A DNA stretch of 64,000 nucleotides, taken from Escherichia phage vB_EcoM_FJ1. The stretch is from sequence record MZ170040.1, one strand, 5' to 3'. The notes beneath the pieces were generated by a model, which ran no database searches, was not told the origin of the DNA, and was given only the letters and a program-made list of their open reading frames with translations. This document shows positions 1 through 28,026 of this stretch, one piece after another. Every line of letters starts with the position of its first letter. Within the stretch, counting starts at the first letter, position 1. A program made the position numbers and the translations under genes.

Positions 1-1016
1 AATTCTTCTGCGATGGCTTTAACAGTTGTGTAACTATTTTCTGAATAAACTCTAATGCGGCAAGATTTACAAATACCTAGATAGTCAACAATAATGATTG
101 TTGGAACAAAATTCTTCTTGAGCTTTAATTCATTTAAAAGCGACCGAAATGTATTAGCATCTGCTCCACCAGTAGGATACTGTTTAACGATTAAACGGCC
201 GAGAGTAGATTTCTCACGCCATTTTTCCATTTTTCCTTTATACTCAGCGTAAGAAATATGCCCATCATCAATGTCATCAAGAGAAACATCAAGCATGTTA
301 GCGTCAATACGCTTAGCACAGACTTCTTCTGCCATTTCCATGGAAATGTAAAGAACATTATGTCCGAGCTGCAAATAATCTGCTGCCAATGAACACAAAC
401 CTAATGACTTACCGACGTTAACACCAGCCATTAAAACGTTCAGTGTTCCAGTTTCAGCTCCGCCTTTCGTAATTTTGTTTAGAATTCTGAGTTTAAATGG
501 AACTTTACGAGCTTTATTCATATAAGATAGCCAGCGTGCTTCGTAGTCATCCATCCAATCATGACCAACGTAGCTATCAAATGAAATTGATAATGCTTGA
601 CGCATGATGTCAGGAATAGCACCTACATCTGGCATTTTCTTATTTCGTTTTTCCGGAGGAAGCTCAGCATTAGTTTGAATTTCGATTATTTTAGACGTAG
701 CATTAAACATCGCCCTTTGCTGAACATATTTTTCTGTTTCTTTTACTAACCAGCTGTGGTCTTCCGGAGAATCAGCTAGTTTTGAAATAAGTGTTTTTAC
801 ACCAGAATATTCTGTTTCAGTAAATGAACTATTTTCTAATGCAACATTTAACGCATTAATAGATGGAACGCTATGATACTCATTGACATGAGATTTAATT
901 AATTTGAATGTATTTTTAGCTGGACCACTTTCAAAATATTCTGAATCCATATATGGCCAAACTTTTGAAAAATAAGCTTGATCAAATATGAGATGAGAAA
1001 GAATAATTTCTACCAC
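1..1016 (-). CDS. 41: replicative DNA helicase gp41, N-terminal part only (gene runs off the window start)
   Basis: Minus-strand frame open to position 1; GTG start at 1016-1014 five nt after AAGGAG; translation MVEIILSHLIFDQAYF...GAETGTLNVLMAGVNVGKS with DnaB-like Walker A; sits upstream of 40/uvsX as in T4. Confidence 0.8.
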   Translation of the reverse strand, partial: MVEIILSHLIFDQAYFSKVWPYMDSEYFESGPAKNTFKLIKSHVNEYHSVPSINALNVALENSSFTETEYSGVKTLISKLADSPEDHSWLVKETEKYVQQRAMFNATSKIIEIQTNAELPPEKRNKKMPDVGAIPDIMRQALSISFDSYVGHDWMDDYEARWLSYMNKARKVPFKLRILNKITKGGAETGTLNVLMAGVNVGKSLGLCSLAADYLQLGHNVLYISMEMAEEVCAKRIDANMLDVSLDDIDDGHISYAEYKGKMEKWREKSTLGRLIVKQYPTGGADANTFRSLLNELKLKKNFVPTIIIVDYLGICKSCRIRVYSENSYTTVKAIAEE

Positions 1017-1025
1017 ACTTACTCC

Positions 1026-1388
1026 TTAAAAGAATTTAAATTTTTTCTTTGACCTTTTATTAAATGCATCTTGTAGTTGCATTGTAATACATTTTTCTAC
1101 ATGAGGAGCTAACTCAGCTTTTCTTTCTTGGTCAAGAACAGCAAAGTCCATTACGACTTTTCCATCAACCCAATCTAATTTTGTCACATACACAATGTGT
1201 GTAGAACCATCTTCTAGTTTAATGACAATCTCCTGGATAACATTTTCCATGGCAGATTTAATTATCTTAAGAGATTCATTAAAAAGACGTTCTTTTCTTT
1301 CTTCTTCCCCCTCCGAAGAGGGGGATTCGTCGATAATTTCTAGATCTAAGTCTAAATCATCTTTATTCATTAAATTCTTCCATATCAC
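1026..1388 (-). CDS. 40: gp40-like small protein (head vertex assembly chaperone in T4)
   Basis: 120-aa ORF between uvsX and 41, same size and position as T4 gene 40; acidic N-terminus. Confidence 0.55.
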   Translation of the reverse strand: MIWKNLMNKDDLDLDLEIIDESPSSEGEEERKERLFNESLKIIKSAMENVIQEIVIKLEDGSTHIVYVTKLDWVDGKVVMDFAVLDQERKAELAPHVEKCITMQLQDAFNKRSKKKFKFF

Positions 1389-2544
1389 TTAACTGCTCGA
1401 GGTCAGTTTCTAAATCAGCAGCTGATTTACTTTTACTTTCTGGAGATTTAAATTTTTCAACCTTTGAGTTAATCAATTCATCAACTTCAGCTTCAACAAT
1501 TTCATTACTATCAATAGCACCTAACTGATAAGCACGTTTAATAGCATCTCGGAATGGTTGATGCTTAAATAAAGGACCCCAGAATGTAGTGCAGTTGGTA
1601 TCTTTTGCACGCCAAGATTTTTCTTCGCGAATCATCTCGCCGGTTTCTTCATCAAGAAATTCACGAGCATACCAGCCATTTTTAGGTTTTACCACGAATC
1701 CTAATTCTAGAGCCATATCTAACAATCCAGAATAAGGATCGATACCACCGTCAAATTTAACATCAATAAAGAATTTACTTTTTTCTTTAACAGTACGAGA
1801 TTTTTCTACATTTAGAACAAATTGATACCCCTGAAGATCAGAACCATCTTTAATCTGACGTTTACCGATAATGAATACAGTATCAGCCGAATACATTACG
1901 CCTGTACCACCTGTCATCACGGTTTTACTAAACATTTCAATTGTTTCAATTGTATGGTTAACCGCAACACATGGAATATTTTTAATGCTAAAGTAAGGAG
2001 TAACAATACGGAATAATGACTTCAGTGATTTAGCACGAGTCATATCTGCCACAGATTTTTCATTCAAGGCATCTTCCGTTTCTTTCTTAGAAGCCATATT
2101 ACCGATTGAGTCGATGAATACAATAACTTTTTCACCGCGCTCAATAGCTTCAAGCTGATTCACCATATCAATTTTCAGCTGTTCAACTGACTGAATCGGC
2201 GTATGAATTACTCGTTCCGGGTCAACTCCCATGGATCGCAAATAAGCTGGAGTAATACCAAATTCGCTATCATAGAATAGACAAACCGCGTCAGGATATT
2301 TGTTCAAATACGCCGCAACCATAGTCAAAGACATATTTGATTTAAAGTGTTTAGAAGGCCCTGCGAAAATAGTTAAACCAGACTGCATACCACCATCAAT
2401 CGCACCAGAAATAGCAATATTAAGCATTGGAATTTTTGTACGAATTACATCCTTTTCATTAAAGAATTTAGATGTAGTCAGTTCAGCAGTCATTTTAGAA
2501 GTGGAAGCTTTAATCAAACGGGATTTTAAATCTGCAATAGACAT
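1363..2544 (-). CDS. uvsX: UvsX RecA-like recombinase
   Basis: 393-aa ORF; RecA-fold Walker A (GPSKHFKS), Walker B (VIVFIDSIG); near-identical to T4 UvsX as recalled. Confidence 0.95.
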   Translation of the reverse strand: MSIADLKSRLIKASTSKMTAELTTSKFFNEKDVIRTKIPMLNIAISGAIDGGMQSGLTIFAGPSKHFKSNMSLTMVAAYLNKYPDAVCLFYDSEFGITPAYLRSMGVDPERVIHTPIQSVEQLKIDMVNQLEAIERGEKVIVFIDSIGNMASKKETEDALNEKSVADMTRAKSLKSLFRIVTPYFSIKNIPCVAVNHTIETIEMFSKTVMTGGTGVMYSADTVFIIGKRQIKDGSDLQGYQFVLNVEKSRTVKEKSKFFIDVKFDGGIDPYSGLLDMALELGFVVKPKNGWYAREFLDEETGEMIREEKSWRAKDTNCTTFWGPLFKHQPFRDAIKRAYQLGAIDSNEIVEAEVDELINSKVEKFKSPESKSKSAADLETDLEQLSDMEEFNE

Positions 2545-2621
2545 TCATTTTTTCCATAGGCATCATTATATTTTCCTCACTGGTTAAAGATAGAGTAATT
2601 ATAACACAATAAATTTAGGCA

Positions 2622-3470
2622 TTAATCAACTGCTATTGGATGAATAGCATTAAACTTATGAAATGCTTCTGATTTTTCTTTACGAGAAACACACATGCGA
2701 AGAACCTTTAATGGCTCGTCTTCTTCACCCAACGATTTTCGTTTTTCAATATTAGAAGTTTTCCAACGAGCTTGCTCTGGAAACTCTCTATTGATTTGCT
2801 CAAGCGCTCTATTATGTTTAGAATTACTACGAATTGAACTGCACCCGCCGGGAGCGTGTGATTTTCCAGATACAACTAGATATTTGAACAAGGCCAAATG
2901 CGGATAACCTTGATTAATTAAATTGAGAAATGCGTACATATCTTCACATAAATCAATTTTTCCATACCCAATTTGTTCTGTCGTAAGTTTTCCGAGGTCA
3001 TACCATGTATTCGTGAATCCATATGAGTTTTCACGATAATTACCCCAAGATGAAGTAATTTTAAAAATTGGTAGACGAGCATGACCGTGATAATACCCGC
3101 AATCCATAGCATCCTCAACGTATTGAATTAATTCATAGAACTGTTCACGAGTTAATTGATTAATTTTATCTACGCGCCGTTTATCGTCTCTCTTTCGTAT
3201 TGAACTCATACGAATAGTAGTATCATCATCAATCATCCAGATTCGTTGACCTGCATACATATCAGTAATTGCTTTACGAGTACCGGCAATTCCATTAACA
3301 TCATCAGGAATAGTTACAATTTTAGCTCTAGACCCATAAGCATCATAATAAGCTTTTTCTTCGTGTTCACGCACTACAATATGTGGTTCATAATCAGTCG
3401 GAAACATATCAAGGGCAGAAACTGCCCCTACACGTTGATAGCTTGGAATTACGAATTGAATCATTTCCAC
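2622..3470 (-). CDS. glycosyltransferase (DxD, GT-A-like) at the beta-gt locus; not T4 beta-glucosyltransferase
   Basis: 282-aa ORF between uvsX and gene 42 where T4 has the 351-aa beta-gt; contains WMIDDD motif; no resemblance to the T4 beta-gt sequence I recall. Confidence 0.5.
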   Translation of the reverse strand: MEMIQFVIPSYQRVGAVSALDMFPTDYEPHIVVREHEEKAYYDAYGSRAKIVTIPDDVNGIAGTRKAITDMYAGQRIWMIDDDTTIRMSSIRKRDDKRRVDKINQLTREQFYELIQYVEDAMDCGYYHGHARLPIFKITSSWGNYRENSYGFTNTWYDLGKLTTEQIGYGKIDLCEDMYAFLNLINQGYPHLALFKYLVVSGKSHAPGGCSSIRSNSKHNRALEQINREFPEQARWKTSNIEKRKSLGEEDEPLKVLRMCVSRKEKSEAFHKFNAIHPIAVD

Positions 3471-4201
3471 TCACCGTTATAATCTTTTTTCACAATATGA
3501 GTTTCGCCAGTATTCCACCAATGATCAACCAAGTAAAAATGACGAGAATATACATGAAGACTTCCAACATTCCATATAATAGAACCTGCTTTATACTGAC
3601 GAGTTGAATCGCCTGCATTCAAATCAGATACTAATTTATCTAATACGTATTTTTGCCATGCATAATCATTACGGAATCCGAAGACCACGTCATTTGAGCG
3701 CATGCTTACTACTGCATTGACTTTCTTATCACGAATCAGGTACTGTACTGTATTAGTACACATGAAATCCGACATGCCATCTTTATTGTAGTCAAACTGC
3801 ATGGATGGACGAGTATAAATCATGATACCGCGTCGAGAATCAGGATTTTGACCAAGTTCAGCTAAACACATATCATACTGGGCATAGTTATCTTCTGACC
3901 AGATGGCCCAACCATAATTCGAGTTAATTTCGCCTTTAGAAGATGCTACCTGCTGCCAAATCTTCGGCGTTTCACCTGGAATATCTTTAACAAACAGACT
4001 TTGAGACTTATACCATTCAAGTTCACGCTGAATGTATTCATCATTAAGAGCGCCAAAAATAAACGGTTCATCTGCTACAAATGATGCGCCAATAATTTCA
4101 ATAGTTTTAACACCAGTTTTATCAATTACGAAATCTTTTTCCTTTAATGCAATTCCCAAATGAAGACGGATTTCTTCAACTGTCAAAGAGTCATTAATCA
4201 T
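3461..4201 (-). CDS. 42: dCMP hydroxymethylase
   Basis: 246-aa ORF, same length and position as T4 gp42; thymidylate-synthase-like fold motifs. Confidence 0.9.
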   Translation of the reverse strand: MINDSLTVEEIRLHLGIALKEKDFVIDKTGVKTIEIIGASFVADEPFIFGALNDEYIQRELEWYKSQSLFVKDIPGETPKIWQQVASSKGEINSNYGWAIWSEDNYAQYDMCLAELGQNPDSRRGIMIYTRPSMQFDYNKDGMSDFMCTNTVQYLIRDKKVNAVVSMRSNDVVFGFRNDYAWQKYVLDKLVSDLNAGDSTRQYKAGSIIWNVGSLHVYSRHFYLVDHWWNTGETHIVKKDYNGEWK

Positions 4202-4208
4202 TTAAACC

Positions 4209-4358
4209 TCAATTGATACATTCATATTTAACTTGTAACAGTAATAAACCCCAACCTAAAATAATAGTTGGAATCATAAGAGGAACCGTTACACTATAGT
4301 ATATACTTATTATAACCATCAAGATTAAAAGCAACACTGCTATAATTTTGCTTTTCAT
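4209..4358 (-). CDS. small hydrophobic membrane protein (49 aa)
   Basis: ATG at 4358-4356 overlaps the imm stop as ATGA; translation MKSKIIAVLLLILMVIISIYYSVTVPLMIPTIILGWGLLLLQV... is almost entirely hydrophobic. Below the 60-aa cutoff of the ORF track. Confidence 0.4.
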   Translation of the reverse strand: MKSKIIAVLLLILMVIISIYYSVTVPLMIPTIILGWGLLLLQVKYECIN

Positions 4359-4606
4359 TCCTTCTCTCTGATGATAATTACCTGATTTGGCTGCGCAGAC
4401 TTTTTAGTTTCACCTGCAATTGACCAAATAAATGTAATAAACCAACCAATAATTGACCAGTTAAACAGTAAAGATGTGAAAAAGATTCCTACTGTCGATT
4501 TTGACCCACGCATCAAGGCGATAAACCATGGAAGCATGTATATAATAATAGCCAACACGCCTGAAACTAAAACCATAAAAATTGAACCTGCTACTAAAGT
4601 TTCCAT
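4355..4606 (-). CDS. imm: Imm superinfection immunity membrane protein
   Basis: 83-aa two-TM protein between 42 and 43, same size and position as T4 Imm. Confidence 0.8.
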   Translation of the reverse strand: METLVAGSIFMVLVSGVLAIIIYMLPWFIALMRGSKSTVGIFFTSLLFNWSIIGWFITFIWSIAGETKKSAQPNQVIIIREKE

Positions 4607-4613
4607 GTTTTCC

Positions 4614-4994
4614 TCACTTAGTCAAATTTTTTACACATGAATTATAAGAATTCACTACATACTCCATAGGAGCGTTTTTACCTGTACGCCATTGGTAATT
4701 ATTAGCCCAATTTGCCCAAAGTTCTGCACAGTAGTTTTCAATTTTTTCTTCGCGTGTAATTACATCCGAATTACGATATGCTTGAGCAGATTCATCTGGA
4801 CGAATAGCTTCGTCAAAATTCGCCTGCATTTGTTCTACTGTTTGCTTTGGAGCTTCTTTATAACACTTGACATTAGGATTATAAAACTTGCTTGAACAGT
4901 TTACAATTTTTCCTACATCAGACTGATTTACTACCGGTCCTTGAGCTACACAACCAGTAAGACCTAATGCAATAACCAAAATAGCGATTTTCAT
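4614..4994 (-). CDS. predicted lipoprotein
   Basis: 126 aa; N-terminal MKIAILVIALGLTGC (signal peptide plus lipobox LTGC); several Cys and Trp in the mature part. Confidence 0.5.
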   Translation of the reverse strand: MKIAILVIALGLTGCVAQGPVVNQSDVGKIVNCSSKFYNPNVKCYKEAPKQTVEQMQANFDEAIRPDESAQAYRNSDVITREEKIENYCAELWANWANNYQWRTGKNAPMEYVVNSYNSCVKNLTK

Positions 4995-5004
4995 AATAAT
5001 TTCC

Positions 5005-5241
5005 TCAAATACAAGTAGTAATTACTCCAGTAGTGCTTACACAGATATTACCTAATTGAACACCCAGCGTTCCATTAGTATTCACATGAAGATTATCATC
5101 AATTTTAACTGATATTTTACCATTAGTGTGAATAACGGTGCTAGATTCAATCACAGGTTGAGTATCATTTTCAACACTAACAAATGGAACGGCTGCTAAT
5201 GCAACTAAACACACTGCTAAGCAACCATAAACAATTTTCAT
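5005..5241 (-). CDS. small secreted protein
   Basis: Track ORF 5005..5298 starts at a TTG inside the promoter; the likely start is ATG at 5241 (MKIVYGCLAVCLVALAAVPFVSVEN signal peptide) with GGAG 7 nt upstream. Confidence 0.45.
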   Translation of the reverse strand: MKIVYGCLAVCLVALAAVPFVSVENDTQPVIESSTVIHTNGKISVKIDDNLHVNTNGTLGVQLGNICVSTTGVITTCI

Positions 5242-5271
5242 TTCATTCTCCAAATCCGTATCAGTAGTTGA

Positions 5272-5325
5272 TAGTTGTATAGTACCATGGAAGGACAAGG
5301 ATGTAAACCGTTTTGTGAAAAAATT
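5272..5325 (-). promoter_or_regulatory. early promoter (conserved family: -35 GTTTAC, 18-nt spacer, -10 TACTAT, AT-rich upstream)
   Basis: Minus-strand GTTTAC at 5308-5303 and TACTAT at 5284-5279; the same ~55-bp block recurs at least eight times in the window. Confidence 0.65.
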
Positions 5326-15971: not shown

Positions 15972-17174
15972 TTATTTTGTAATAATGTCAAACTGTTCTT
16001 TAAAACAGAAGCTTGAATCTTGATGCTGATACAAAAATTCATATGCTTTTTCTCGCTCACGGTCATAAAGAGCTCGGTCAGATGACAGTTCTTTAATACG
16101 CTCGAATGTTGATTCCATGTCATTTTCATCAAACCAAATGATACCGCTATCATGCGAGGTCAAAGGAGTATTATCAACACGGAATTTTAAATTTTCGCCA
16201 GTAGATTTCCAGAAAACAGGAATTGTACCGCAAGCACCTAATTCAAGATGAGTATATTCTAGTGAGCGTTGTAAGTATTTCTGGTTAAGTTTACTCAACT
16301 GATATCCAAAGCCAGATTTACTCATTCGTTCAAGCATTTCACTATTAATATAACAATCTAGGATTTGTGCCGGTTGATTCGGCGTGAGATTCATTTTATC
16401 GATCTCACGATTACCGTAATATTCATACGGAATACCTTTTTCCTTAATTGCAATAAAAGCAGGGGAACGTTCAAGACCTTCCATTACAGTGGATTTACCA
16501 GCAGGTTTTAAGAATTTTTCGTGAAAATCAAACATCTGGTAAAAACCTTTCCATGTAGTCGTACGACCAATCCAACGATTGATATTCATGTTAATTTCAG
16601 AAACATCTTTCCAGTAGGTTGATCGAACTTTCGCAATATCCATAGGAGGCTGAAAGTTATATACGGTCGGTGCTTCTTCAATATCATCAAACAGAGAAAC
16701 AGTTTCTGGATACCATTCTTTCATCAAAACTTTATTAAAATCGCCATTATCAGAATGACTAAAAATAACATCAGCTCGACGAACAGTTTCTTCTAATCCC
16801 AAATTTCGACGCAAAGAAAGAACAGAATGATCATGCTGATAAACTACAACACGAATAGAAGGTTTAATATTATCTAAAAGTTTTTTATAGTTATTAATCG
16901 TGGCTTCTTGAACGGAAGTAGCAGGAACAGAATTAATAATTAGAATATCACAATCATTTACCAGCTTAAGTGCTTTATCGTATTCTTTAGCTAAAATAAC
17001 TGGAATTGAAAATGATTTGTGGTCATGAGAACTTGTACGAGTAAATGATTTATCTTTAGCATAAACCAAAGTTACTTCATGACCATTCTTAATAAACCAA
17101 TCACGTTGCTCAAGAGAAAATTTAGTTACACCACAACCTTCAAGACCTCGAGCCATAAAAATACATACTTTCAT
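15972..17174 (-). CDS. a-gt: DNA alpha-glucosyltransferase
   Basis: 400-aa ORF, near-identical to T4 alpha-glucosyltransferase as recalled (MKVCIFMARGLEGCGVTKFSLEQRDWFIKNGHEVTLVYAK...). Confidence 0.9.
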   Translation of the reverse strand: MKVCIFMARGLEGCGVTKFSLEQRDWFIKNGHEVTLVYAKDKSFTRTSSHDHKSFSIPVILAKEYDKALKLVNDCDILIINSVPATSVQEATINNYKKLLDNIKPSIRVVVYQHDHSVLSLRRNLGLEETVRRADVIFSHSDNGDFNKVLMKEWYPETVSLFDDIEEAPTVYNFQPPMDIAKVRSTYWKDVSEINMNINRWIGRTTTWKGFYQMFDFHEKFLKPAGKSTVMEGLERSPAFIAIKEKGIPYEYYGNREIDKMNLTPNQPAQILDCYINSEMLERMSKSGFGYQLSKLNQKYLQRSLEYTHLELGACGTIPVFWKSTGENLKFRVDNTPLTSHDSGIIWFDENDMESTFERIKELSSDRALYDREREKAYEFLYQHQDSSFCFKEQFDIITK

Positions 17175-19810: not shown

Positions 19811-20026
19811 TTAAATTTTCCAGTTACCGTTTTCATCAATAAATTTAATCCAGTCATTTACTGACCACTTGGTCGTATCGCCTTTTGGAGCAATATTTAA
19901 AGTGTATAATCCTTGTTTAAAAAGCATGCGTTTGATATTCATATTTTCCTCAGCTGTAACGATAGCACTCGTTTGATTTACGCTTAGCAACTCGTTGAGA
20001 AGTATTGTAATCAAAATCATCGTCAA
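19811..20026 (-). CDS. hypothetical protein (start uncertain)
   Basis: 71-aa ORF overlapping its neighbour by 77 nt; an internal ATG at about 19942 would give 44 aa. Confidence 0.3.
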   Translation of the reverse strand: MTMILITILLNELLSVNQTSAIVTAEENMNIKRMLFKQGLYTLNIAPKGDTTKWSVNDWIKFIDENGNWKI

Positions 20027-20243
20027 TGTAAACTGATTTTTTCAACTTTCTTACTTCACCGCGTAATTGACGATTTAGCTCATCTTTAACTTCTGAATCA
20101 ATGCCTTTCATTCTACGCCATTTATCTGAGCGAAAAATGTTTTCAACCATATCTTTATGACTTACCCCATCAGGAGCTTTACGCTTTCCGAAATAGTCAT
20201 AATCACGCACTTTTAAGTCTTTACGACGATACGTTTTACCCAT
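19950..20243 (-). CDS. hypothetical basic protein
   Basis: ATG at 20243 (MGKTYRRKDLKVRDYDY...); Lys/Arg-rich. Confidence 0.4.
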   Translation of the reverse strand: MGKTYRRKDLKVRDYDYFGKRKAPDGVSHKDMVENIFRSDKWRRMKGIDSEVKDELNRQLRGEVRKLKKSVYIDDDFDYNTSQRVAKRKSNECYRYS

Positions 20244-20418
20244 GGAGTTTAATTTCCTTAGCAACTGAACTAAATACAGCACGATCACAAATCATGCGTT
20301 TATGTAACTTGAGTATAATATAGCAAACTTCAAAACTATTTACATGAGTAACACGAACAGCATTACCATTAATGAGATAATACTGTCCCTTTTTAATTTC
20401 TTTATCAACCATAACCAT
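20236..20418 (-). CDS. hypothetical protein
   Basis: 60-aa ORF downstream of the early promoter at 20.45 kb. Confidence 0.4.
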   Translation of the reverse strand: MVMVDKEIKKGQYYLINGNAVRVTHVNSFEVCYIILKLHKRMICDRAVFSSVAKEIKLHG

Positions 20419-20444
20419 AACAATTCCTCAAAGGCAATTCATAT

Positions 20445-20500
20445 GTTAATAATACCACAGTTTGAGCTCGTTGTAAACAACTTTGTGAAAATTATTTTAG
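20445..20500 (-). promoter_or_regulatory. early promoter (GTTTAC family)
   Basis: Minus-strand GTTTAC at 20478-20473, TATTAT about 18 nt downstream, AT-rich upstream block. Confidence 0.5.
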
Positions 20501-20559
20501 GGAATGATAAGAAAGGAACGATAGCTTAGAATGGTAATATACAGAATGCGAGAAAGAAA

Positions 20560-20572
20560 GGCCCAGAGGGCC
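20560..20572 (-). terminator. hairpin after nrdH
   Basis: GGCCC-AGA-GGGCC, then a T-run on the minus strand. Confidence 0.5.
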
Positions 20573-20576
20573 CGTC

Positions 20577-20885
20577 TTAGTCTTCTATGATATCTCTATC
20601 ATATCCAAGTGAAATGAGAGTTTCTTTGAAGTGTTTAATGTTCTTTTGTCTAGAATCATTAATGAAAATGACTGGATAACGAATGTTAAGAGATGTGAAT
20701 CCAGCGCGTTTAGCAAGAGATACAATCAGTGGACGATCATACTCAATCTTACCGTTATTTGTAAGAACTTTATAGAAAGTAAAAGGAGCATTGAGCTCCT
20801 TTAGAAGTTTTGTAACTGATTGACATCCAGGACAACGACCAACTTCATCTGGAATTCCATAGACTTCAATCTTATTTTGTTTCAC
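20577..20885 (-). CDS. nrdH: glutaredoxin/NrdH-like redoxin
   Basis: 102 aa with CPGC redox motif in a thioredoxin-fold context; adjacent to nrdG and nrdD. Confidence 0.65.
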   Translation of the reverse strand: MKQNKIEVYGIPDEVGRCPGCQSVTKLLKELNAPFTFYKVLTNNGKIEYDRPLIVSLAKRAGFTSLNIRYPVIFINDSRQKNIKHFKETLISLGYDRDIIED

Positions 20886-20887
20886 AA

Positions 20888-21124
20888 CTATTCCTTACTA
20901 AGAGCAGCATTCAGCTTGTTAGTAATTTTATCCAGACGCTCATTGAACTCACTAGAAGATAAGCCCTTTTCTGGAGAAATCAAACTAATCACGAAAAATA
21001 TAGCAATAAAAGGAATAAGGAAAATAGCTCCAACTGCCATAAACAGAAAGAATGTTACAGTTGTAAGAAAATCAGCTAAACCTTTACGAAATTTATACAT
21101 ATTTACCCTTAATTGATTAACCAA
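20888..21124 (-). CDS. small membrane protein
   Basis: 78 aa with a long hydrophobic segment (FLTTVTFFLFMAVGAIFLIPFIAIFFVISLI). Confidence 0.45.
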   Translation of the reverse strand: MVNQLRVNMYKFRKGLADFLTTVTFFLFMAVGAIFLIPFIAIFFVISLISPEKGLSSSEFNERLDKITNKLNAALSKE

Positions 21125-21214
21125 GCATTGATAAGCACTAAACTATATTGGGAATAAAATTCTGGACCAAAATGAAAAATCATATCATTTATAGTATCCA
21201 TAATGTAATTCAAT

Positions 21215-21685
21215 TTAATCATGTTTCCACACCCCATCGGTATTTGACCAAAGCCGCTGATTATCTGATCCTCGCCACAGCTTTTTAGTCGGAAGATTTT
21301 TCTCATACTTCCCATCAATAATAACATCAACATATTTAAGCATTTCTAGCTGTTTAATATCTTCAAATTTATATCCTGTCCACAACCAAATGCTTTTATT
21401 GGGATAAAGATTTTTTACTGTTTGAACAATGCAATGAATAACATCTCGGTTATCAGGATAGAGAGGGTCTCCTCCAGTTATAGTTAATCCTTCTATATAA
21501 TCATTATTCAAACATTCAATTAATTGCTCTAGTGTCTCTCCAGTGAATGGAATACCATTTCTAACATTCCATGTTGATTTATTATAACACCCTTCGCATT
21601 TATGCAAACAACCTGTAACGAAAAGAACGACCCTGCATCCAGGGCCATTCACAAAATCGCAAGGATAAAATCTATCATAATTCAT
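21215..21685 (-). CDS. nrdG: anaerobic ribonucleotide reductase activase (radical SAM)
   Basis: 156 aa; Cys cluster CLHKCEGCYN; overlaps the nrdD stop. Confidence 0.9.
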   Translation of the reverse strand: MNYDRFYPCDFVNGPGCRVVLFVTGCLHKCEGCYNKSTWNVRNGIPFTGETLEQLIECLNNDYIEGLTITGGDPLYPDNRDVIHCIVQTVKNLYPNKSIWLWTGYKFEDIKQLEMLKYVDVIIDGKYEKNLPTKKLWRGSDNQRLWSNTDGVWKHD

Positions 21686-23499
21686 TGGTGTTTAACCCTA
21701 TGCATGATTTCTTTATTTTTGCCGAGATTAAATCCGCGTTCGTTCGGGTTTCCAAGATAGCCGCATGTTCTTCTTATTGTGTTCATCTTTTTAGGATCAG
21801 TTTCTCCACAAATAGAACAAACAAATCCGTTTTCAGTAGGAGTCATTTCATGAGTGCTTCCACACGTAAAACATTTATCTACTGGCATGTTAACACCAAA
21901 ATAATCTAAATGTTGTGCAGCATAATCCCATACAGCCTCAAGACCTTTTAGGTTATTTTTCATATCAGGAAGTTCAACATAAGAAATGTGACCACCTGTC
22001 GCAATGAAATGATATGGTGCTTCACGAGAAATCTTTTCAAACGGAGTGATATTTTCTTCTACTGAAACATGGAAACTATTAGTGTACCAACCTTTATCAG
22101 TAACATCTTTTACGCTTCCATATTTTTCAGTATCAAGTTTACAGAAGCGATAGCAAAGGTTTTCAGCAGGAGTAGAATACAAGCTAAAAGCAAAACCGGT
22201 TCTTTCGGTCCACTGTTTAAGATGAGCATTCATCTTAGTTAAAATTTCTTGTCCAATATCACGACCGACAAGAATATTCAATTCGTGAATACCAATGTAT
22301 CCTAAGGACACTGAACTTCTACCGTTTTTAAATAACTCAATTATGTCGTCATCAGGTTTAAGACGAACCCCGAATGCACCTTCTTGGTAAAGAATAGGAG
22401 CAACAGTAGCTTTAACTCCTTTTAAGGAACTAATTCTACACATCAAAGCTTCAAAACACAAATCCATACGTTCATTAAATAGCTCAACAAATTTCTGTTC
22501 ATTGAACTGTGTTCCAATATAAGAATCTAACGCGATGCGAGGAAGATTCAGTGTTACAACACCAAGATTATTACGTCCATCAAGAATTTCATTACCAGTC
22601 GAATCTTTCCATACGCTCAAGAAACTACGGCATCCCATCGGAGAAACAGGAACAGATGAACCAGTGATAGCTTTATTGTTCTTGGCTGAAATAATATCAG
22701 GATACATCCTTTTGCTTGCGCACTCTAGAGCAAGCTGCTTAATATCATAGTTCGGATCGTCTTTGTAAAGATTAACACCTTCTTCAACGAACATAACAAG
22801 CTTAGGGAAAATAGGAGTTATCCCATCACGACCAAGACCTTTAATACGATTTTTCAGAATTGCTTTCTGAATCATTCGTTCAGTCCAGTCAGTTCCCGTA
22901 CCAAATGTAATTGTTACAAAAGGCGTTTGTCCGTTTGAACTAAAGAGAGTATTTACTTCATATTCATAAGCTTGGAATGCATCATATACATCTTTTTCTG
23001 TTTTAGATTGAGCATAATTTAACGCATCAGCGATTTGCCATTTTTCTGCATCCTCAATATGTTTTGCATAGGTGCGTTTAACATAAGGAGAAAGTACTTT
23101 ATCTACATTCGCAAAAGTCGTTCCGCCGTATTGATGGGAAGCAACCTGTGCAGTAATTTGTGCCATAATTGCAGTAGCAACACCGATTGATTTAGGAGTT
23201 TCAATCTGTGCATTACCAAGCTTAAATCCATTCTCAAGCATTCCTTTTAAATCTACTAAACAGCAATTAGTAAAAGGCAATGATATACTGTAATCTAAAT
23301 CATGAAAATGAATTAATCCAACATTATGGGCATTTACAATATGACTTGGAAGAATACGACAAGCGATATGTTTAGAAACAATACCGGCCATTAAATCTCT
23401 TTTTGTTGGAAAGACACGAGAATCTTTGTTGGCGTTTTCGGTATTTAATTCTTTATCTTTATTTGAAATAAAATTTAAAACATCTTTCTCTAAAGACAT
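21682..23499 (-). CDS. nrdD: anaerobic ribonucleotide reductase, class III (intronless)
   Basis: Uninterrupted 605-aa ORF; C-terminal zinc ribbon CFTCGSTHE...CSICG and glycyl-radical motif RRTCGYLG. Confidence 0.95.
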   Translation of the reverse strand: MSLEKDVLNFISNKDKELNTENANKDSRVFPTKRDLMAGIVSKHIACRILPSHIVNAHNVGLIHFHDLDYSISLPFTNCCLVDLKGMLENGFKLGNAQIETPKSIGVATAIMAQITAQVASHQYGGTTFANVDKVLSPYVKRTYAKHIEDAEKWQIADALNYAQSKTEKDVYDAFQAYEYEVNTLFSSNGQTPFVTITFGTGTDWTERMIQKAILKNRIKGLGRDGITPIFPKLVMFVEEGVNLYKDDPNYDIKQLALECASKRMYPDIISAKNNKAITGSSVPVSPMGCRSFLSVWKDSTGNEILDGRNNLGVVTLNLPRIALDSYIGTQFNEQKFVELFNERMDLCFEALMCRISSLKGVKATVAPILYQEGAFGVRLKPDDDIIELFKNGRSSVSLGYIGIHELNILVGRDIGQEILTKMNAHLKQWTERTGFAFSLYSTPAENLCYRFCKLDTEKYGSVKDVTDKGWYTNSFHVSVEENITPFEKISREAPYHFIATGGHISYVELPDMKNNLKGLEAVWDYAAQHLDYFGVNMPVDKCFTCGSTHEMTPTENGFVCSICGETDPKKMNTIRRTCGYLGNPNERGFNLGKNKEIMHRVKHQ

Positions 23500-24311
23500 A
23501 ATTCTAATTTATCCTTTTGAAATTCTTCGTCTAAATATGGGTTCCAACCCATTTTAAACCTTTTGATGAAATTATCAATTCTAAATTTCGGTAAGTTTAA
23601 ATCCGCAAAAATAGATGATTTACTTTTAAAATCTGGACCTAAATAATCATATAAAATTTCTGCGTATTTTAACCATAATATACAAGTACCAGATTTAATT
23701 GCGTTCGGAGTTTTCCAAGGTTTTACACCATACATCGGATTTCCACTTCCTTTATGCCTGATAGAAGATGAAATTCCAATTTTAATTTTAGCTTCCTTTG
23801 TATGCGAAAATCCACGATGCTGATTTTCTTTCCAGTATTTTTTAGAAGCTTCTGATATTTTCTTTCTGGCTAAATTAGTATGATGCTTTCCATAAAATCC
23901 ATGATTTTTGCCTTTATTACGATTTCTTTTAATCATGGTTATTGATTGCTTTTCTCTAGTTTCTTTAGAAGGAGAAATACCATATGTCGTAAATTTGCCA
24001 TCAGCATATGCTAAATTAAAATACTCTTTATTCCATACATCTTTTTCTATATTCTTTTGAAATTCAGCTTCAATGCTAGTTATTTGTTCATCTCCGACTA
24101 ATTGAAAATATAATATTTCAACTTTCGGCGTTTCTTTCAATAAGGCTTTTTGAAATTCGGAAGATGACGAAGACGAATAATAAAATTTACCATTTTTATC
24201 AATAATATTCGTTCCATCAAAAGTGCAATTGGTTTTACTTCCAATGTAATAATATGGTGGGGTTTTAGCATTAATTCTATTAATAAATGATAGTTTATAT
24301 ACTACATTCAT
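23490..24311 (-). CDS. GIY-YIG homing endonuclease-like protein (free-standing)
   Basis: 273 aa; N-terminal VVYKLSF...YYYIGSKTN (GIY...YIG spacing), NUMOD-like GKNHGFYGKHH and GSGNPMYG repeats; start overlaps the gp49 stop as ATGA. Confidence 0.7.
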   Translation of the reverse strand: MNVVYKLSFINRINAKTPPYYYIGSKTNCTFDGTNIIDKNGKFYYSSSSSSEFQKALLKETPKVEILYFQLVGDEQITSIEAEFQKNIEKDVWNKEYFNLAYADGKFTTYGISPSKETREKQSITMIKRNRNKGKNHGFYGKHHTNLARKKISEASKKYWKENQHRGFSHTKEAKIKIGISSSIRHKGSGNPMYGVKPWKTPNAIKSGTCILWLKYAEILYDYLGPDFKSKSSIFADLNLPKFRIDNFIKRFKMGWNPYLDEEFQKDKLELCL

Positions 24312-24781
24312 TTTAAACTCTTTCTAAGCTGCTTCTTAAATGAAGCTATTAATTGTGTTTTGGTGTCAGATTCATTATATTCAAATCCTCTTTGAAGCAT
24401 CTCGGCCATCATTTCCTCTTTTCCTAAACGAGAAAATTCCTTTGATTTATCTCCAACAAAGTTAGGGTGAATATTATTTTGGGTGTAATCGGATTTTAAA
24501 TAAGTAAGTAAATTTTCTAACCATTCAAGATAATCAACACCTTGTCCCTTTAAGCCAGAACGATTAAATTTGTGCTTCATTTGACCTTCTGCGGCATTGC
24601 ATAGATTACAAAGCAATCCACGTACCTTTCCTGCTTTTGGTCCATTTAATTCATGGTCATGATCGAGGTGATTAGCTTGAACATCAGGATTTAGTTCTCG
24701 TTGGCAAATTAAGCATTTACCGTTTTGCGCATCATAAAATTTCTGTTTTTCTTCTTTATATAATTTGCCAGTCAATAACAT
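24308..24781 (-). CDS. 49: endonuclease VII (Holliday junction resolvase)
   Basis: 157 aa; zinc-binding CLICQ...CNLCN; matches T4 gp49 as recalled. Confidence 0.9.
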   Translation of the reverse strand: MLLTGKLYKEEKQKFYDAQNGKCLICQRELNPDVQANHLDHDHELNGPKAGKVRGLLCNLCNAAEGQMKHKFNRSGLKGQGVDYLEWLENLLTYLKSDYTQNNIHPNFVGDKSKEFSRLGKEEMMAEMLQRGFEYNESDTKTQLIASFKKQLRKSLK

Positions 24782-24823
24782 AATAAACCCTTACCTTAAA
24801 TAGATAAGGGTATTTATTATTTT

Positions 24824-25309
24824 TCAAGTATTGTAAAACATTTGATGCAATCGCTTATATTGCCGAATCTTTTGGTCAGAAAAAGAAATTTGATTTTCAA
24901 GCCATTCAATGTATTCTGCGGCAGCTTGCATCAGGTTACCTTCATAGCCATCGTTATTTTCTTGTGCAGCTAATTTAGCTAATGCGTATGAAATACGTTC
25001 ACCTTGAAAATCGGCTTTAGGCTTCTGAACAACTTGATTAGTTCGCTCTACAACTTCTTCAATTTCGCCATTTTCTACTGATTCAGTATTCCACAAGCAC
25101 CAATACGTAATTGGCTTATCGTAGATGTTAATAATCTTTCCATCAGAAAGTTCAATTTCAATAATTCCAGTATCAGGCTCTATATCATCTTCACATTCTT
25201 TTGCAAGTTCACGAACTTTAAAGACATTACCTGCACTAAGTTCCGGCCAGTAATTACACAGCCCTGTATCAACACGATTAATTCTAAACCACTTATCTAC
25301 TGTAATCAT
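24824..25309 (-). CDS. hypothetical protein (position and size of T4 pin)
   Basis: ATG at 25309 gives 161 aa; assignment by position and size only. Confidence 0.4.
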   Translation of the reverse strand: MITVDKWFRINRVDTGLCNYWPELSAGNVFKVRELAKECEDDIEPDTGIIEIELSDGKIINIYDKPITYWCLWNTESVENGEIEEVVERTNQVVQKPKADFQGERISYALAKLAAQENNDGYEGNLMQAAAEYIEWLENQISFSDQKIRQYKRLHQMFYNT

Positions 25310-25432
25310 GTCCCATCTCCATATCAATTAAGTCATTTATCGTTGGTTCATTATATATTGTTTCTTCATCAGTGTAAACCGGTTCTTCCGGCTCTGGCTC
25401 TACAGTTTCCCATCTAGCCGCCCACCAAGGTT

Positions 25433-25753
25433 TTATAGCGTAATCCATTCTCGTACTGTCTGAGTTACTACACGTTCACGGGGCTCGACTAGTTCAACGG
25501 TAGGAACTGCATAATACCAGTCAGAATGATAAGAACCTGACCGAGATTCATTTACCGCTACATGTACATTATGTTCTGGACTAAAGTAAACACACTGACG
25601 ATATTGGCATTTACCATCTTGCACCCAGTCTTCTATTTCGACAGGTTTAAGATAATCGGAAAAATCGAAATCATAGTTTTCCGAAAATGCATCATGGTCT
25701 TCAATGATTTCGCTCAGAACTGCATCAACATCTAATTTATTTTCAATAGTCAT
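25433..25753 (-). CDS. hypothetical acidic protein
   Basis: 106-aa ORF. Confidence 0.45.
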   Translation of the reverse strand: MTIENKLDVDAVLSEIIEDHDAFSENYDFDFSDYLKPVEIEDWVQDGKCQYRQCVYFSPEHNVHVAVNESRSGSYHSDWYYAVPTVELVEPRERVVTQTVREWITL

Positions 25754-25763
25754 TTTTCACCAA

Positions 25764-25973
25764 TTAATTTCGCAATTTATTAAGTTCTTCATAATCAATC
25801 CAGGATTCTAATCCTGATGGCAAATCAGATTCAATTTCCCAAAGAAGTTCTTCAATTTTATGAAGACGATCTAATTCTTCAGCTGGAATAGTAACCATTG
25901 ACGGAGTTCTTGATACACTAATATCGTAAATCATATTTACCCCAGTTTGACCATGCAATCGCCGTATTTCCAC
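25764..25973 (-). CDS. hypothetical protein
   Basis: 69-aa ORF. Confidence 0.4.
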   Translation of the reverse strand: MEIRRLHGQTGVNMIYDISVSRTPSMVTIPAEELDRLHKIEELLWEIESDLPSGLESWIDYEELNKLRN

Positions 25974-26152
25974 TTAGAAATAGACTTTTCACCATTAGAA
26001 TAATAAACTTCGAGTTTAGCGCGGCCATTTTTAATTTGAATAACCTTTGCTGTCATCAAAGTTCCATACCCATAATAAACTGCAACCTCATCACCTACAT
26101 ATACCGCGCTTCCGCGGTAGTCATGGATATAATCAGTTCCTTCGAGCATCAT
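25937..26152 (-). CDS. hypothetical protein
   Basis: 71-aa ORF. Confidence 0.4.
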   Translation of the reverse strand: MMLEGTDYIHDYRGSAVYVGDEVAVYYGYGTLMTAKVIQIKNGRAKLEVYYSNGEKSISKWKYGDCMVKLG

Positions 26153-26412
26153 TTAAAGTATTCCCGCAATTGGTCAAATCCACCAATATGACTTCCATCA
26201 GGAGCAAATACTTGTGGCATTGTCAAACCAATTTGAGTATCACGACCTAGTTTAGTCAGAAGCTCAGCGATTTTCTCATCATCAAAAACACCTTTTTCCG
26301 GCATAATGTTGATAAATTCAAACGGTTGTTTCTTCACAGTCAAGAGACGTTTTGCATTATCGCAATACACACATTTATGGATGTTGCTATCATAACCATA
26401 TACTTTAAACAT
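26149..26412 (-). CDS. nrdC: thioredoxin (glutaredoxin-like)
   Basis: 87 aa with CVYC redox motif; matches T4 NrdC as recalled. Confidence 0.9.
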   Translation of the reverse strand: MFKVYGYDSNIHKCVYCDNAKRLLTVKKQPFEFINIMPEKGVFDDEKIAELLTKLGRDTQIGLTMPQVFAPDGSHIGGFDQLREYFK

Positions 26413-26413
26413 A

Positions 26414-26656
26414 TTATTCCTTAATTCCTAGTACTTGTTTAAAAGTCTCGTCGTAATCAAGACTTTGGCCCGTTTGTTCTTTATGTTTGTATATAATATC
26501 ACTTACTTCTGATAGCATATTTTTATATGAACGAGTTAAAGCAGATTTAAGCACGCTGTATCTATCAGGAAATTTACCGTGTTCATTATAATAAGCTATT
26601 GCTAATTCACGGACTGCCTTTTCAGCAGTCTCCATATATTCTTTACGCTTGGTCAT
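26414..26656 (-). CDS. hypothetical protein
   Basis: 80-aa ORF coupled to nrdC. Confidence 0.45.
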
Positions 26657-26658
26657 TT

Positions 26659-27048
26659 TTAATCCAAAATATTATTAGGCATTGGTTGAACACTCGCAAG
26701 TTCTTTAAAGAACTCAGTAGAGTCAGGCAATTTAACCATTTCCGGAGCATGCTTACTGAATTTATGTTTACATTGACGGCATTTATATTCAAGCTCTGGT
26801 TTACGCCAGTTAATCAACTGAACTTGTTCAGTACCGCATTCAGGGCAATTAGGAACGTTTTTAGAAGCTCTTTCACGTCGTTCAACCATAGCCATAATAG
26901 CATCCCATGCTGGAGGTTTAAAATCTAAATCGTCGCAGCCGTGAATCTTTCCACGCATTTCCATATCATCTTCCTCACCAGCCATAATAATTTTAATTAA
27001 ACTGGAATTACTTGAAGCTGCAATGTCTTCTAATAAACGCTTTTTCAT
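26659..27048 (-). CDS. zinc-ribbon protein
   Basis: 129 aa with CPECG...CRQC four-Cys zinc ribbon. Confidence 0.5.
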
Positions 27049-27974
27049 TTCAATACCTCAATAGCATTACGTAAACCATTTGCTTTTGCATTAAGAGCTT
27101 TTAACAATTTGGTGTGTTCTGCAATTTGGGCTTCAACTTCAATCAAACGGGCATTGAGATATTCACGTTCTTCACTCAGATTATCAATCTTTTCTACTTT
27201 AGGCTCTTTTACAACTGTCTTATATATATTAGGGTTCTTCAGTTTAATTAAAATGCGTGAACTGTATAACATTGAACCATTATCTTCGGTTTCGTCATAC
27301 ATTTCTACTACGTCCATGATTTTTAACATCATGCGGAGTTTATAAGATAACGAACGAATAGTTTTGTTGTGCTTATTAATTTCTCTAGAGTTCATGGTGC
27401 CGAGATTACGTGAGTAATAATAAGGAACCTGGATATTAATTAATACTGATGAACCACCTGGCTTGTGTGTTACTTCATCAGCAATAACCCAATCCTTAAC
27501 ATGAACTGTATTTGTACGGTCATCGCCCGCGGTAAATAGTTTGCGAGCATGCTTAAAAAGCATATTCACTTGGTCATTGAATTGACAAGCAAATTTATCA
27601 GCAAATTTAGTTTCAGGAATGGTAGATAACCAATCAGCCAAATGAGTCTTTTTAACATCGTTAACAATAGTAAATTCAACCAAATCAGTTATAGATGTCT
27701 CAGATTTAATAAAGCTCGGCTTCATAAAGTTTTTAATGTTATCGCGAGCTACAGTAGAAGATAACATACGAGAACGTTTAAACCATTGAAGCAAATTGCC
27801 CAACGAATGAGAATAAGCGTTTTGAGTATCTTTACAGATATGATTTTCCTGGCCAACATATTGAAGGAAATCACGAAGAATATTATTGATTACTGCCCTG
27901 TGTCCTATCTGATAATTACGATGTTTAGTAATAAGACTGTCAAAATAATCAATATAATGTTTACGAGTTTTCAT
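27045..27974 (-). CDS. hypothetical protein with C-terminal coiled coil (tandem family, member 1)
   Basis: 309 aa; C-terminal heptad-like segment [42 protein letters not shown]. Confidence 0.5.
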   Translation of the reverse strand: MKTRKHYIDYFDSLITKHRNYQIGHRAVINNILRDFLQYVGQENHICKDTQNAYSHSLGNLLQWFKRSRMLSSTVARDNIKNFMKPSFIKSETSITDLVEFTIVNDVKKTHLADWLSTIPETKFADKFACQFNDQVNMLFKHARKLFTAGDDRTNTVHVKDWVIADEVTHKPGGSSVLINIQVPYYYSRNLGTMNSREINKHNKTIRSLSYKLRMMLKIMDVVEMYDETEDNGSMLYSSRILIKLKNPNIYKTVVKEPKVEKIDNLSEEREYLNARLIEVEAQIAEHTKLLKALNAKANGLRNAIEVLK

Positions 27975-28026
27975 GTTCTTCTCACTTGGTTAATGATTTA
28001 TACTCCGAGCCATCCTTGGCTTTAAA

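Follow-up and report, generated by a model that had tools for sequence, protein, structure and literature searches.

The region between uvsX and gene 42, which in T4 carries segA and the gene for a 351-aa beta-glucosyltransferase (b-gt), raises the question of which enzyme Escherichia phage vB_EcoM_FJ1 (MZ170040.1) encodes in that position and what sugar coat would result on the hydroxymethylcytosine (hmC) of its DNA. Throughout the 64,000 nucleotides analyzed (hereafter the window), blastn comparison with T4 20000-28000 returned matches around this locus only at 1000-2532 and 3479-4994, leaving approximately 946 bp in place of the 1.94-kb segA and b-gt segment of T4; T2, in turn, is collinear with window 1000-5006 at 96.8% identity. 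The preliminary description had placed a different glycosyltransferase gene (ba-gt below) between uvsX and gene 42 and had listed a T4-like alpha-gt elsewhere in the window, and all of these positions were recovered, with the three neighboring or partner genes closely resembling their T4 counterparts (Table 1). The gap between ba-gt and uvsX measures 77 bp (window 2545-2621) and is devoid of segA, as is likewise the case in T2 and T6. Both the location of the gene between gene 42 and uvsX and the combination of a present alpha-gt with a b-gt that is absent from the 64-kb window are as found for the T-even ba-gt orthogroup. At a separate site, window 5007-5233, situated between an imm.1-like gene and the DNA polymerase gene 43, is without DNA homology to the syntenic place in T4 or T2, and an ORF of 97 aa with a hydrophobic stretch (5005..5298, minus strand; MSFHGTIQLS...) lies in this segment.

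The frame itself is largely as first described, namely a 282-aa ORF opening with GTG in the program-made ORF list (2622..3470, minus strand), apart from two residues that are probably surplus at the N-terminus. Direct reading of the start region (...GGTGAGTGGAAATGATTCAATTC...) places an ATG at codon 3 of this mechanical ORF (3464..3462), where it and the TGA stop of gene 42 overlap to form ATGA. Because of this overlap, and because the equivalent ATG is the annotated start of the homologs in T2, T6, BGP, EL, Geo, CP, and EH2 (280 aa, or 279 aa in one T6 record), ATG 3464 rather than GTG 3470 is most likely the true start, giving a protein of 280 aa. The arrangement of the two reading frames also suggests that ba-gt may be co-transcribed with gene 42 and translationally coupled to it. 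The WMIDDD motif noted in the preliminary description is present as well, and its three aspartates (D79, D80, and D81) are invariant among 10 homologs with identities down to 31%, an alignment that takes in the window protein itself; these residues are the expected binding site of the metal and UDP-glucose.

Table 1. Positions, in window coordinates, of the second glucosyltransferase gene, its sequence landmarks, and the genes associated with it by location or by proposed pathway.
Feature	Position	Strand	Basis or remark
ba-gt (g-gt / TAGT), beta-glucosyl-HMC-alpha-glucosyltransferase	2622..3464	-	280 aa + stop; PHROG 842, PF20691
D79-D80-D81 codons, DxD-type motif (WMIDDD)	3222..3230	-	sequence; homolog alignment; model
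ATGA overlap, gene 42 stop / ba-gt start	3461..3464	-	direct sequence read
uvsX recombinase, downstream flank of locus	1363..2544	-	90.5% identical to T4 UvsX
gene 42, dCMP hydroxymethylase (proposed source of the hydroxymethyl-dCMP precursor)	3461..4201	-	95.1% identical to T4 gp42; related-record annotation
alpha-gt, alpha-glucosyltransferase (proposed source of the alpha-glucosyl-hmC acceptor for ba-gt)	15972..17174	-	396/400 identical to T4 NP_049673
segment without DNA homology to T4	2533..3478	.	stands in for T4 23556-25496 (segA + b-gt)

Scans of window 2300-4400 for promoters and terminators remained at shuffle level, with 12 promoters found against 9.2 expected and one terminator against 1.0 expected. 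A GC-rich hairpin with a 9-bp stem followed by a T-rich tail is present at 3410-3430 on the minus strand, within the first 55 nt of ba-gt, and a terminator is annotated under the ba-gt match of the related record fPS-65; as the terminator count equals the shuffle expectation, the hairpin may be due to chance. The naming of these genes in databases is uneven. Many RefSeq/GenBank phage records label gene 42 as "thymidylate synthase" or "hypothetical protein," and a fair share of records, including T6 AP018814 and T2 AP018813, list ba-gt as a "hypothetical protein"; these mismatches are matters of annotation inconsistency, not of biology.

The identity of the gene is established by its homologs. 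In agreement with the early remark that the protein bears no resemblance to the beta-glucosyltransferase of T4, BLASTP comparison with T4 b-gt gave a best E value of 4.1, amounting to no similarity, and a tblastn search of the 64-kb window with T4 b-gt at E <= 10 found nothing. The protein instead matches the PHROG 842 profile, "beta-glucosyl-HMC-alpha-glucosyltransferase," over nearly its entire length (E = 1.4e-88; protein 2-277, profile 3-269 of 270). The sole Pfam family reported is the TET-associated glycosyltransferase family (TAGT, PF20691; 39.1 bits against a gathering threshold of 27.5 bits, profile 2-205 of 205), which by sequence sets the protein outside the T4 b-gt family (PF09198, GT-B); an NCBIfam scan of ba-gt and alpha-gt matched no family. 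At the nucleotide level, a megablast search with window 2400-3700 matched 596 phage records, in 474 of which 80% or more of the query aligns at a single place, for the most part with 95-99% identity. With few exceptions, these 474 belong to Tequatrovirus phages infecting Escherichia, Shigella, Yersinia, Salmonella, or Citrobacter, and the gene is labeled beta-glucosyl-HMC-alpha-glucosyltransferase or "glucosyl transferase" in the matched records. Searches by tblastn with the window protein gave identities of 96.5% for T2 and 95.7% for T6, approximately 65% for orthologs that adjoin gene 42 in T4-like phages of Klebsiella and Enterobacter (e.g., CC31), and 47.5% for a Serratia phage ortholog. 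Counted over 280 aa, the protein differs at 9 positions from that of T2, at 11 from that of T6, at 7-8 from those of CP and EH2, and at none from those of BGP, EL, and Geo, the DNA of which is 99.6-99.8% identical over window 2400-3700; over window 1-25000, the nearest record is vB_EcoM_Lutter (97.8%). The gene at 2622..3464 is a second glucosyltransferase of the T2/T6 type, common and already characterized, and adds nothing new to biology. The protein comparison with the T2/T6 enzyme that the preliminary description had proposed has, together with the PHROG and TAGT assignments and the 100% match to BGP, EL, and Geo, lent support to its suggestion that a second glucose is added as in T2/T6-type phages.

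Structure prediction points in the same direction, yielding the glycosyltransferase fold that the same description had implied. A sequence search of the PDB gave chance-level hits only (E > 1), and our search of the literature and databases found neither a solved structure nor in-vitro kinetics for the ba-gt family. An AlphaFold2 model built from the 10-sequence alignment reached a mean pLDDT of 68.9 and a pTM of 0.71, being confident in the N-terminal half (pLDDT 83-95 in the blocks covering residues 1-80) and falling below 50 at residues 126-151 and 194-211. When viral models were searched with Foldseek, the top match was the ba-gt of Klebsiella phage PKO111 (E = 4e-31), followed by proteins labeled as containing a TAGT domain. 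In the model, a hydrophobic strand (residues 74-77, RIWM) directly precedes DDD, which is the canonical position of a DxD motif, and the predicted fold is Rossmann-like GT-A, placing ba-gt among GT2-like DxD glycosyltransferases. An AlphaFold 3 model of the T6 protein in a 2026 paper agrees independently, having been assigned a GT-A fold sister to GT2 (PMC13216743). Given a fold resembling GT2, a DxD motif, and the formation of a beta-linked product from UDP-alpha-glucose, the mechanism is probably inverting and metal-dependent.

The condition of the reading frame bears on whether the enzyme is active at all, given that both T6 records carry lesions in this gene. In MH550421 (3138-3980 of the extracted segment), ba-gt codon 10 is changed from CAA to the amber codon TAG and the annotated CDS begins at a later Met (261 aa), while in AP018814 (3007-3846) one Asp of DDD is missing (WMIDD-TTI; 279 aa). 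These lesions might invite the reading that the window ORF is likewise a decayed or non-functional remnant, which must be considered exceedingly improbable for a copy that is full length and free of internal stops, retains every invariant residue of the 10-sequence alignment, and matches exactly the one found in phages whose gentiobiosyl-hmC has been measured. As for T6 itself, some laboratory stocks, or the sequences derived from them, may not give the classical DNA with 72% gentiobiosyl-hmC. The missing Asp was considered as a genuine T6 trait underlying high gentiobiosylation and was rejected, the second T6 record having an intact DDD.

Having thus described an intact enzyme of the T2/T6 type, we consider it very probable that the gene encodes a beta-alpha glucosyltransferase operating in a gentiobiosyl-hmC pathway with gp42 and alpha-gt. 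In such a pathway, gp42 would produce hydroxymethyl-dCMP, to become hmC after incorporation into DNA; alpha-gt would transfer glucose from UDP-glucose to hmC within the DNA in alpha linkage; and ba-gt would then attach a second glucose, also from UDP-glucose, beta-1,6 onto the first to give gentiobiosyl-hmC. The predicted coat comprises approximately 20% hmC, 40% alpha-glucosyl-hmC, and 40% gentiobiosyl-hmC, with no beta-glucosyl-hmC. This composition is expected because BGP, EL, and Geo share exactly this ba-gt protein, from which we infer the exact ratio; HPLC/MS of DNA from these three phages detected 5-hmdC and its alpha-glucosyl and alpha-gentiobiosyl forms at approximately 1:2:2, with no beta-glucosyl form, and the second glucose was credited by the authors to the TAGT gene (PMC13390438). 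The roles of gp42 and alpha-gt in the first two steps are established, as is that of ba-gt in T2 and T6; these phages also lack b-gt, and the enzyme adds the beta-1,6-linked second glucose, such that T2 and T6 carry gentiobiosyl-hmC at 5% and 72% of their cytosines, respectively (PMC11078745; PMC6024577; PMC13216743). The link between ba-gt and its product is genetic and is taken from the T6 knockout literature. DNA of T6 delta-ba-gt is degraded in vitro by the glycosylase Brig1, whereas wild-type T6 DNA resists, and the mutant DNA is read by the authors as containing alpha-glucosyl-hmC only, presumably on approximately 75% of cytosines (PMC11078745). Likewise, BapA frees glucose from T6 delta-g-gt DNA but not from wild-type T6 DNA (bioRxiv 10.64898/2026.02.25.707755).

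The family to which the enzyme belongs is broad, which raises the matter of its specificity. T4-like phages usually combine alpha-gt with TAGT, and the pair found in T4 (alpha-gt and beta-gt) is rare, being recorded in 6 of the 753 phage genomes that encode GTs (PMC13216743); the arrangement at this locus is accordingly the ordinary one and that of T4 the rare one. Solitary TAGT homologs, accompanied by neither alpha-gt nor beta-gt, were reported in 288 of the 753 genomes (PMC13216743), and this diversity, along with distant relatives merely 15-30% or so identical, could accommodate a TAGT-family transferase that uses another acceptor or sugar (bare hmC, or another NDP-sugar). Such a specificity is nevertheless very improbable here, where enzymes 96-100% identical have been tied genetically or chemically to gentiobiosyl-hmC and where alpha-gt, the maker of the acceptor, is present.

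Greater variation attends the extent of gentiobiosylation, which differs widely among enzymes that are approximately 96% identical; since T2 reaches 5% and T6 72%, the presence of the gene does not in itself fix the ratio. It is therefore conceivable, albeit unlikely, that the window ortholog of ba-gt works weakly in the manner of T2 and leaves mostly alpha-glucosyl-hmC with a few percent of gentiobiosyl-hmC. The T2 gene, 97% identical and associated with only about 5% gentiobiosyl-hmC (PMC11078745), and the seven positions at which the window allele departs from the allele of T6, CP, and EH2 both lean toward this alternative, but BGP, EL, and Geo, which encode exactly the same protein, carry approximately 40% gentiobiosyl-hmC (PMC13390438), and the window protein retains R11 and P251, where both T2 records (AP018813 and PV648364, in which the gene lies at 4283-5125 and 3007-3849 of the extracted segments, respectively) have His at position 11 and Ser at 251. 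Across the 10 aligned sequences, with identities as low as 31%, Arg11 never varies, and Pro251 is found in at least 90% of sequences. Judging from this conservation, H11 and S251 are candidate reasons for the low gentiobiosylation of T2 (approximately 5%) despite its 97% identical enzyme. The mixed coat described above, with its substantial gentiobiosyl fraction, remains our preferred expectation for the window phage.

The seven positions define two alleles, V50/I89/K95/R97/I101/S202/H203 in the window, BGP, EL, Geo, and some 40 further records versus I/M/R/C/V/A/Q in CP, EH2, T2, and T6, and the split parallels the 1:2:2 and "T6-like" nucleoside patterns, differing in the ratio of mono- to di-glucosyl forms, of two groups of Durham Collection phages (PMC13390438). 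That the ba-gt allele alone sets the pattern was deemed unsupportable. It cannot be credited on its own because the alpha-gt alleles also differ (the window alpha-gt is 92% identical to that of CP and 99% identical to that of T4) and because T2 combines the T6-type allele with little gentiobiose. A further suggestion, which we regard as doubtful, is that the window allele is of lower activity or context-selective and leaves an intermediate coat of approximately 40% mono- and 40% di-glucosyl hmC where conversion would otherwise be nearly complete, with alleles tuning a mixed coat that hedges against defences directed at a single form.

The consequences for phage defence can be stated in part. 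The preliminary description had anticipated a hmC sugar pattern different from that of T4, which is supported, and a changed sensitivity to glucose-dependent type IV restriction, which is weakly founded, because the targets reported for GmrSD include gentiobiosyl-hmC alongside both glucosyl stereoisomers (PMC13216743), and because BrxU, an enzyme of the GmrSD family, restricts every one of the Durham phages and cleaved Geo DNA in vitro (PMC13390438). What has been documented in favor of the second glucose lies elsewhere, namely in in-vitro resistance to Brig1, which is specific for alpha-glucosyl-hmC and leaves gentiobiosyl-rich T6 DNA intact (PMC11078745), and in in-vitro resistance to the BapA glucosidase (bioRxiv 10.64898/2026.02.25.707755).

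In this regard, ba-gt informs the reader of a genome about its sugar coat (alpha-glucosyl-hmC and gentiobiosyl-hmC, without beta-glucosyl-hmC), and the coat in turn predicts the behavior of the DNA toward laboratory restriction enzymes, Brig1, BapA/Brig3, and type IV enzymes of the GmrSD/BrxU type, by which it would still be cut. Although publications already cover the gene, what it makes, and where it occurs, such information is useful in annotation and in the selection of therapy phages.

The closest of the named systems is the ba-gt gene of T2 and T6 (g-gt, ggt), which was reportedly cloned by Winkler and Rueger in Nucleic Acids Research in 1993. As in the window, the T2 and T6 genes lie between gene 42 and uvsX with the ATGA overlap, are of equal length at 96-97% identity, and are paired with alpha-gt without b-gt; unlike T2 (9 substitutions) and T6 (11 differences), the window carries the V50/I89/K95/R97/I101/S202/H203 allele. 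The "glucosyl transferase" of the Durham Collection phages vB_Eco_BGP, EL, and Geo (OZ035849, OZ034682, and OZ034685) is a 100% identical protein of 280 aa, although these genomes are overall not identical to the window. T4 b-gt shares with ba-gt its syntenic place beside gene 42, the use of UDP-glucose, the beta linkage, and action on phage DNA after replication, but is devoid of sequence similarity and belongs to GT-B (PF09198) as opposed to the GT-A of ba-gt (PMC13216743); moreover, the acceptor of b-gt is hmC itself, whereas that of ba-gt is alpha-glucosyl-hmC, and b-gt comes together with the homing endonuclease gene segA, which the window lacks. Lastly, the TAGT proteins of other phages (PF20691) share with ba-gt a Pfam family and a predicted fold at approximately 15-30% identity, and presumably act on different acceptors; whereas they are named for their association with TET/JBP dioxygenases, the hydroxymethyl group is here supplied at the nucleotide level by gp42.
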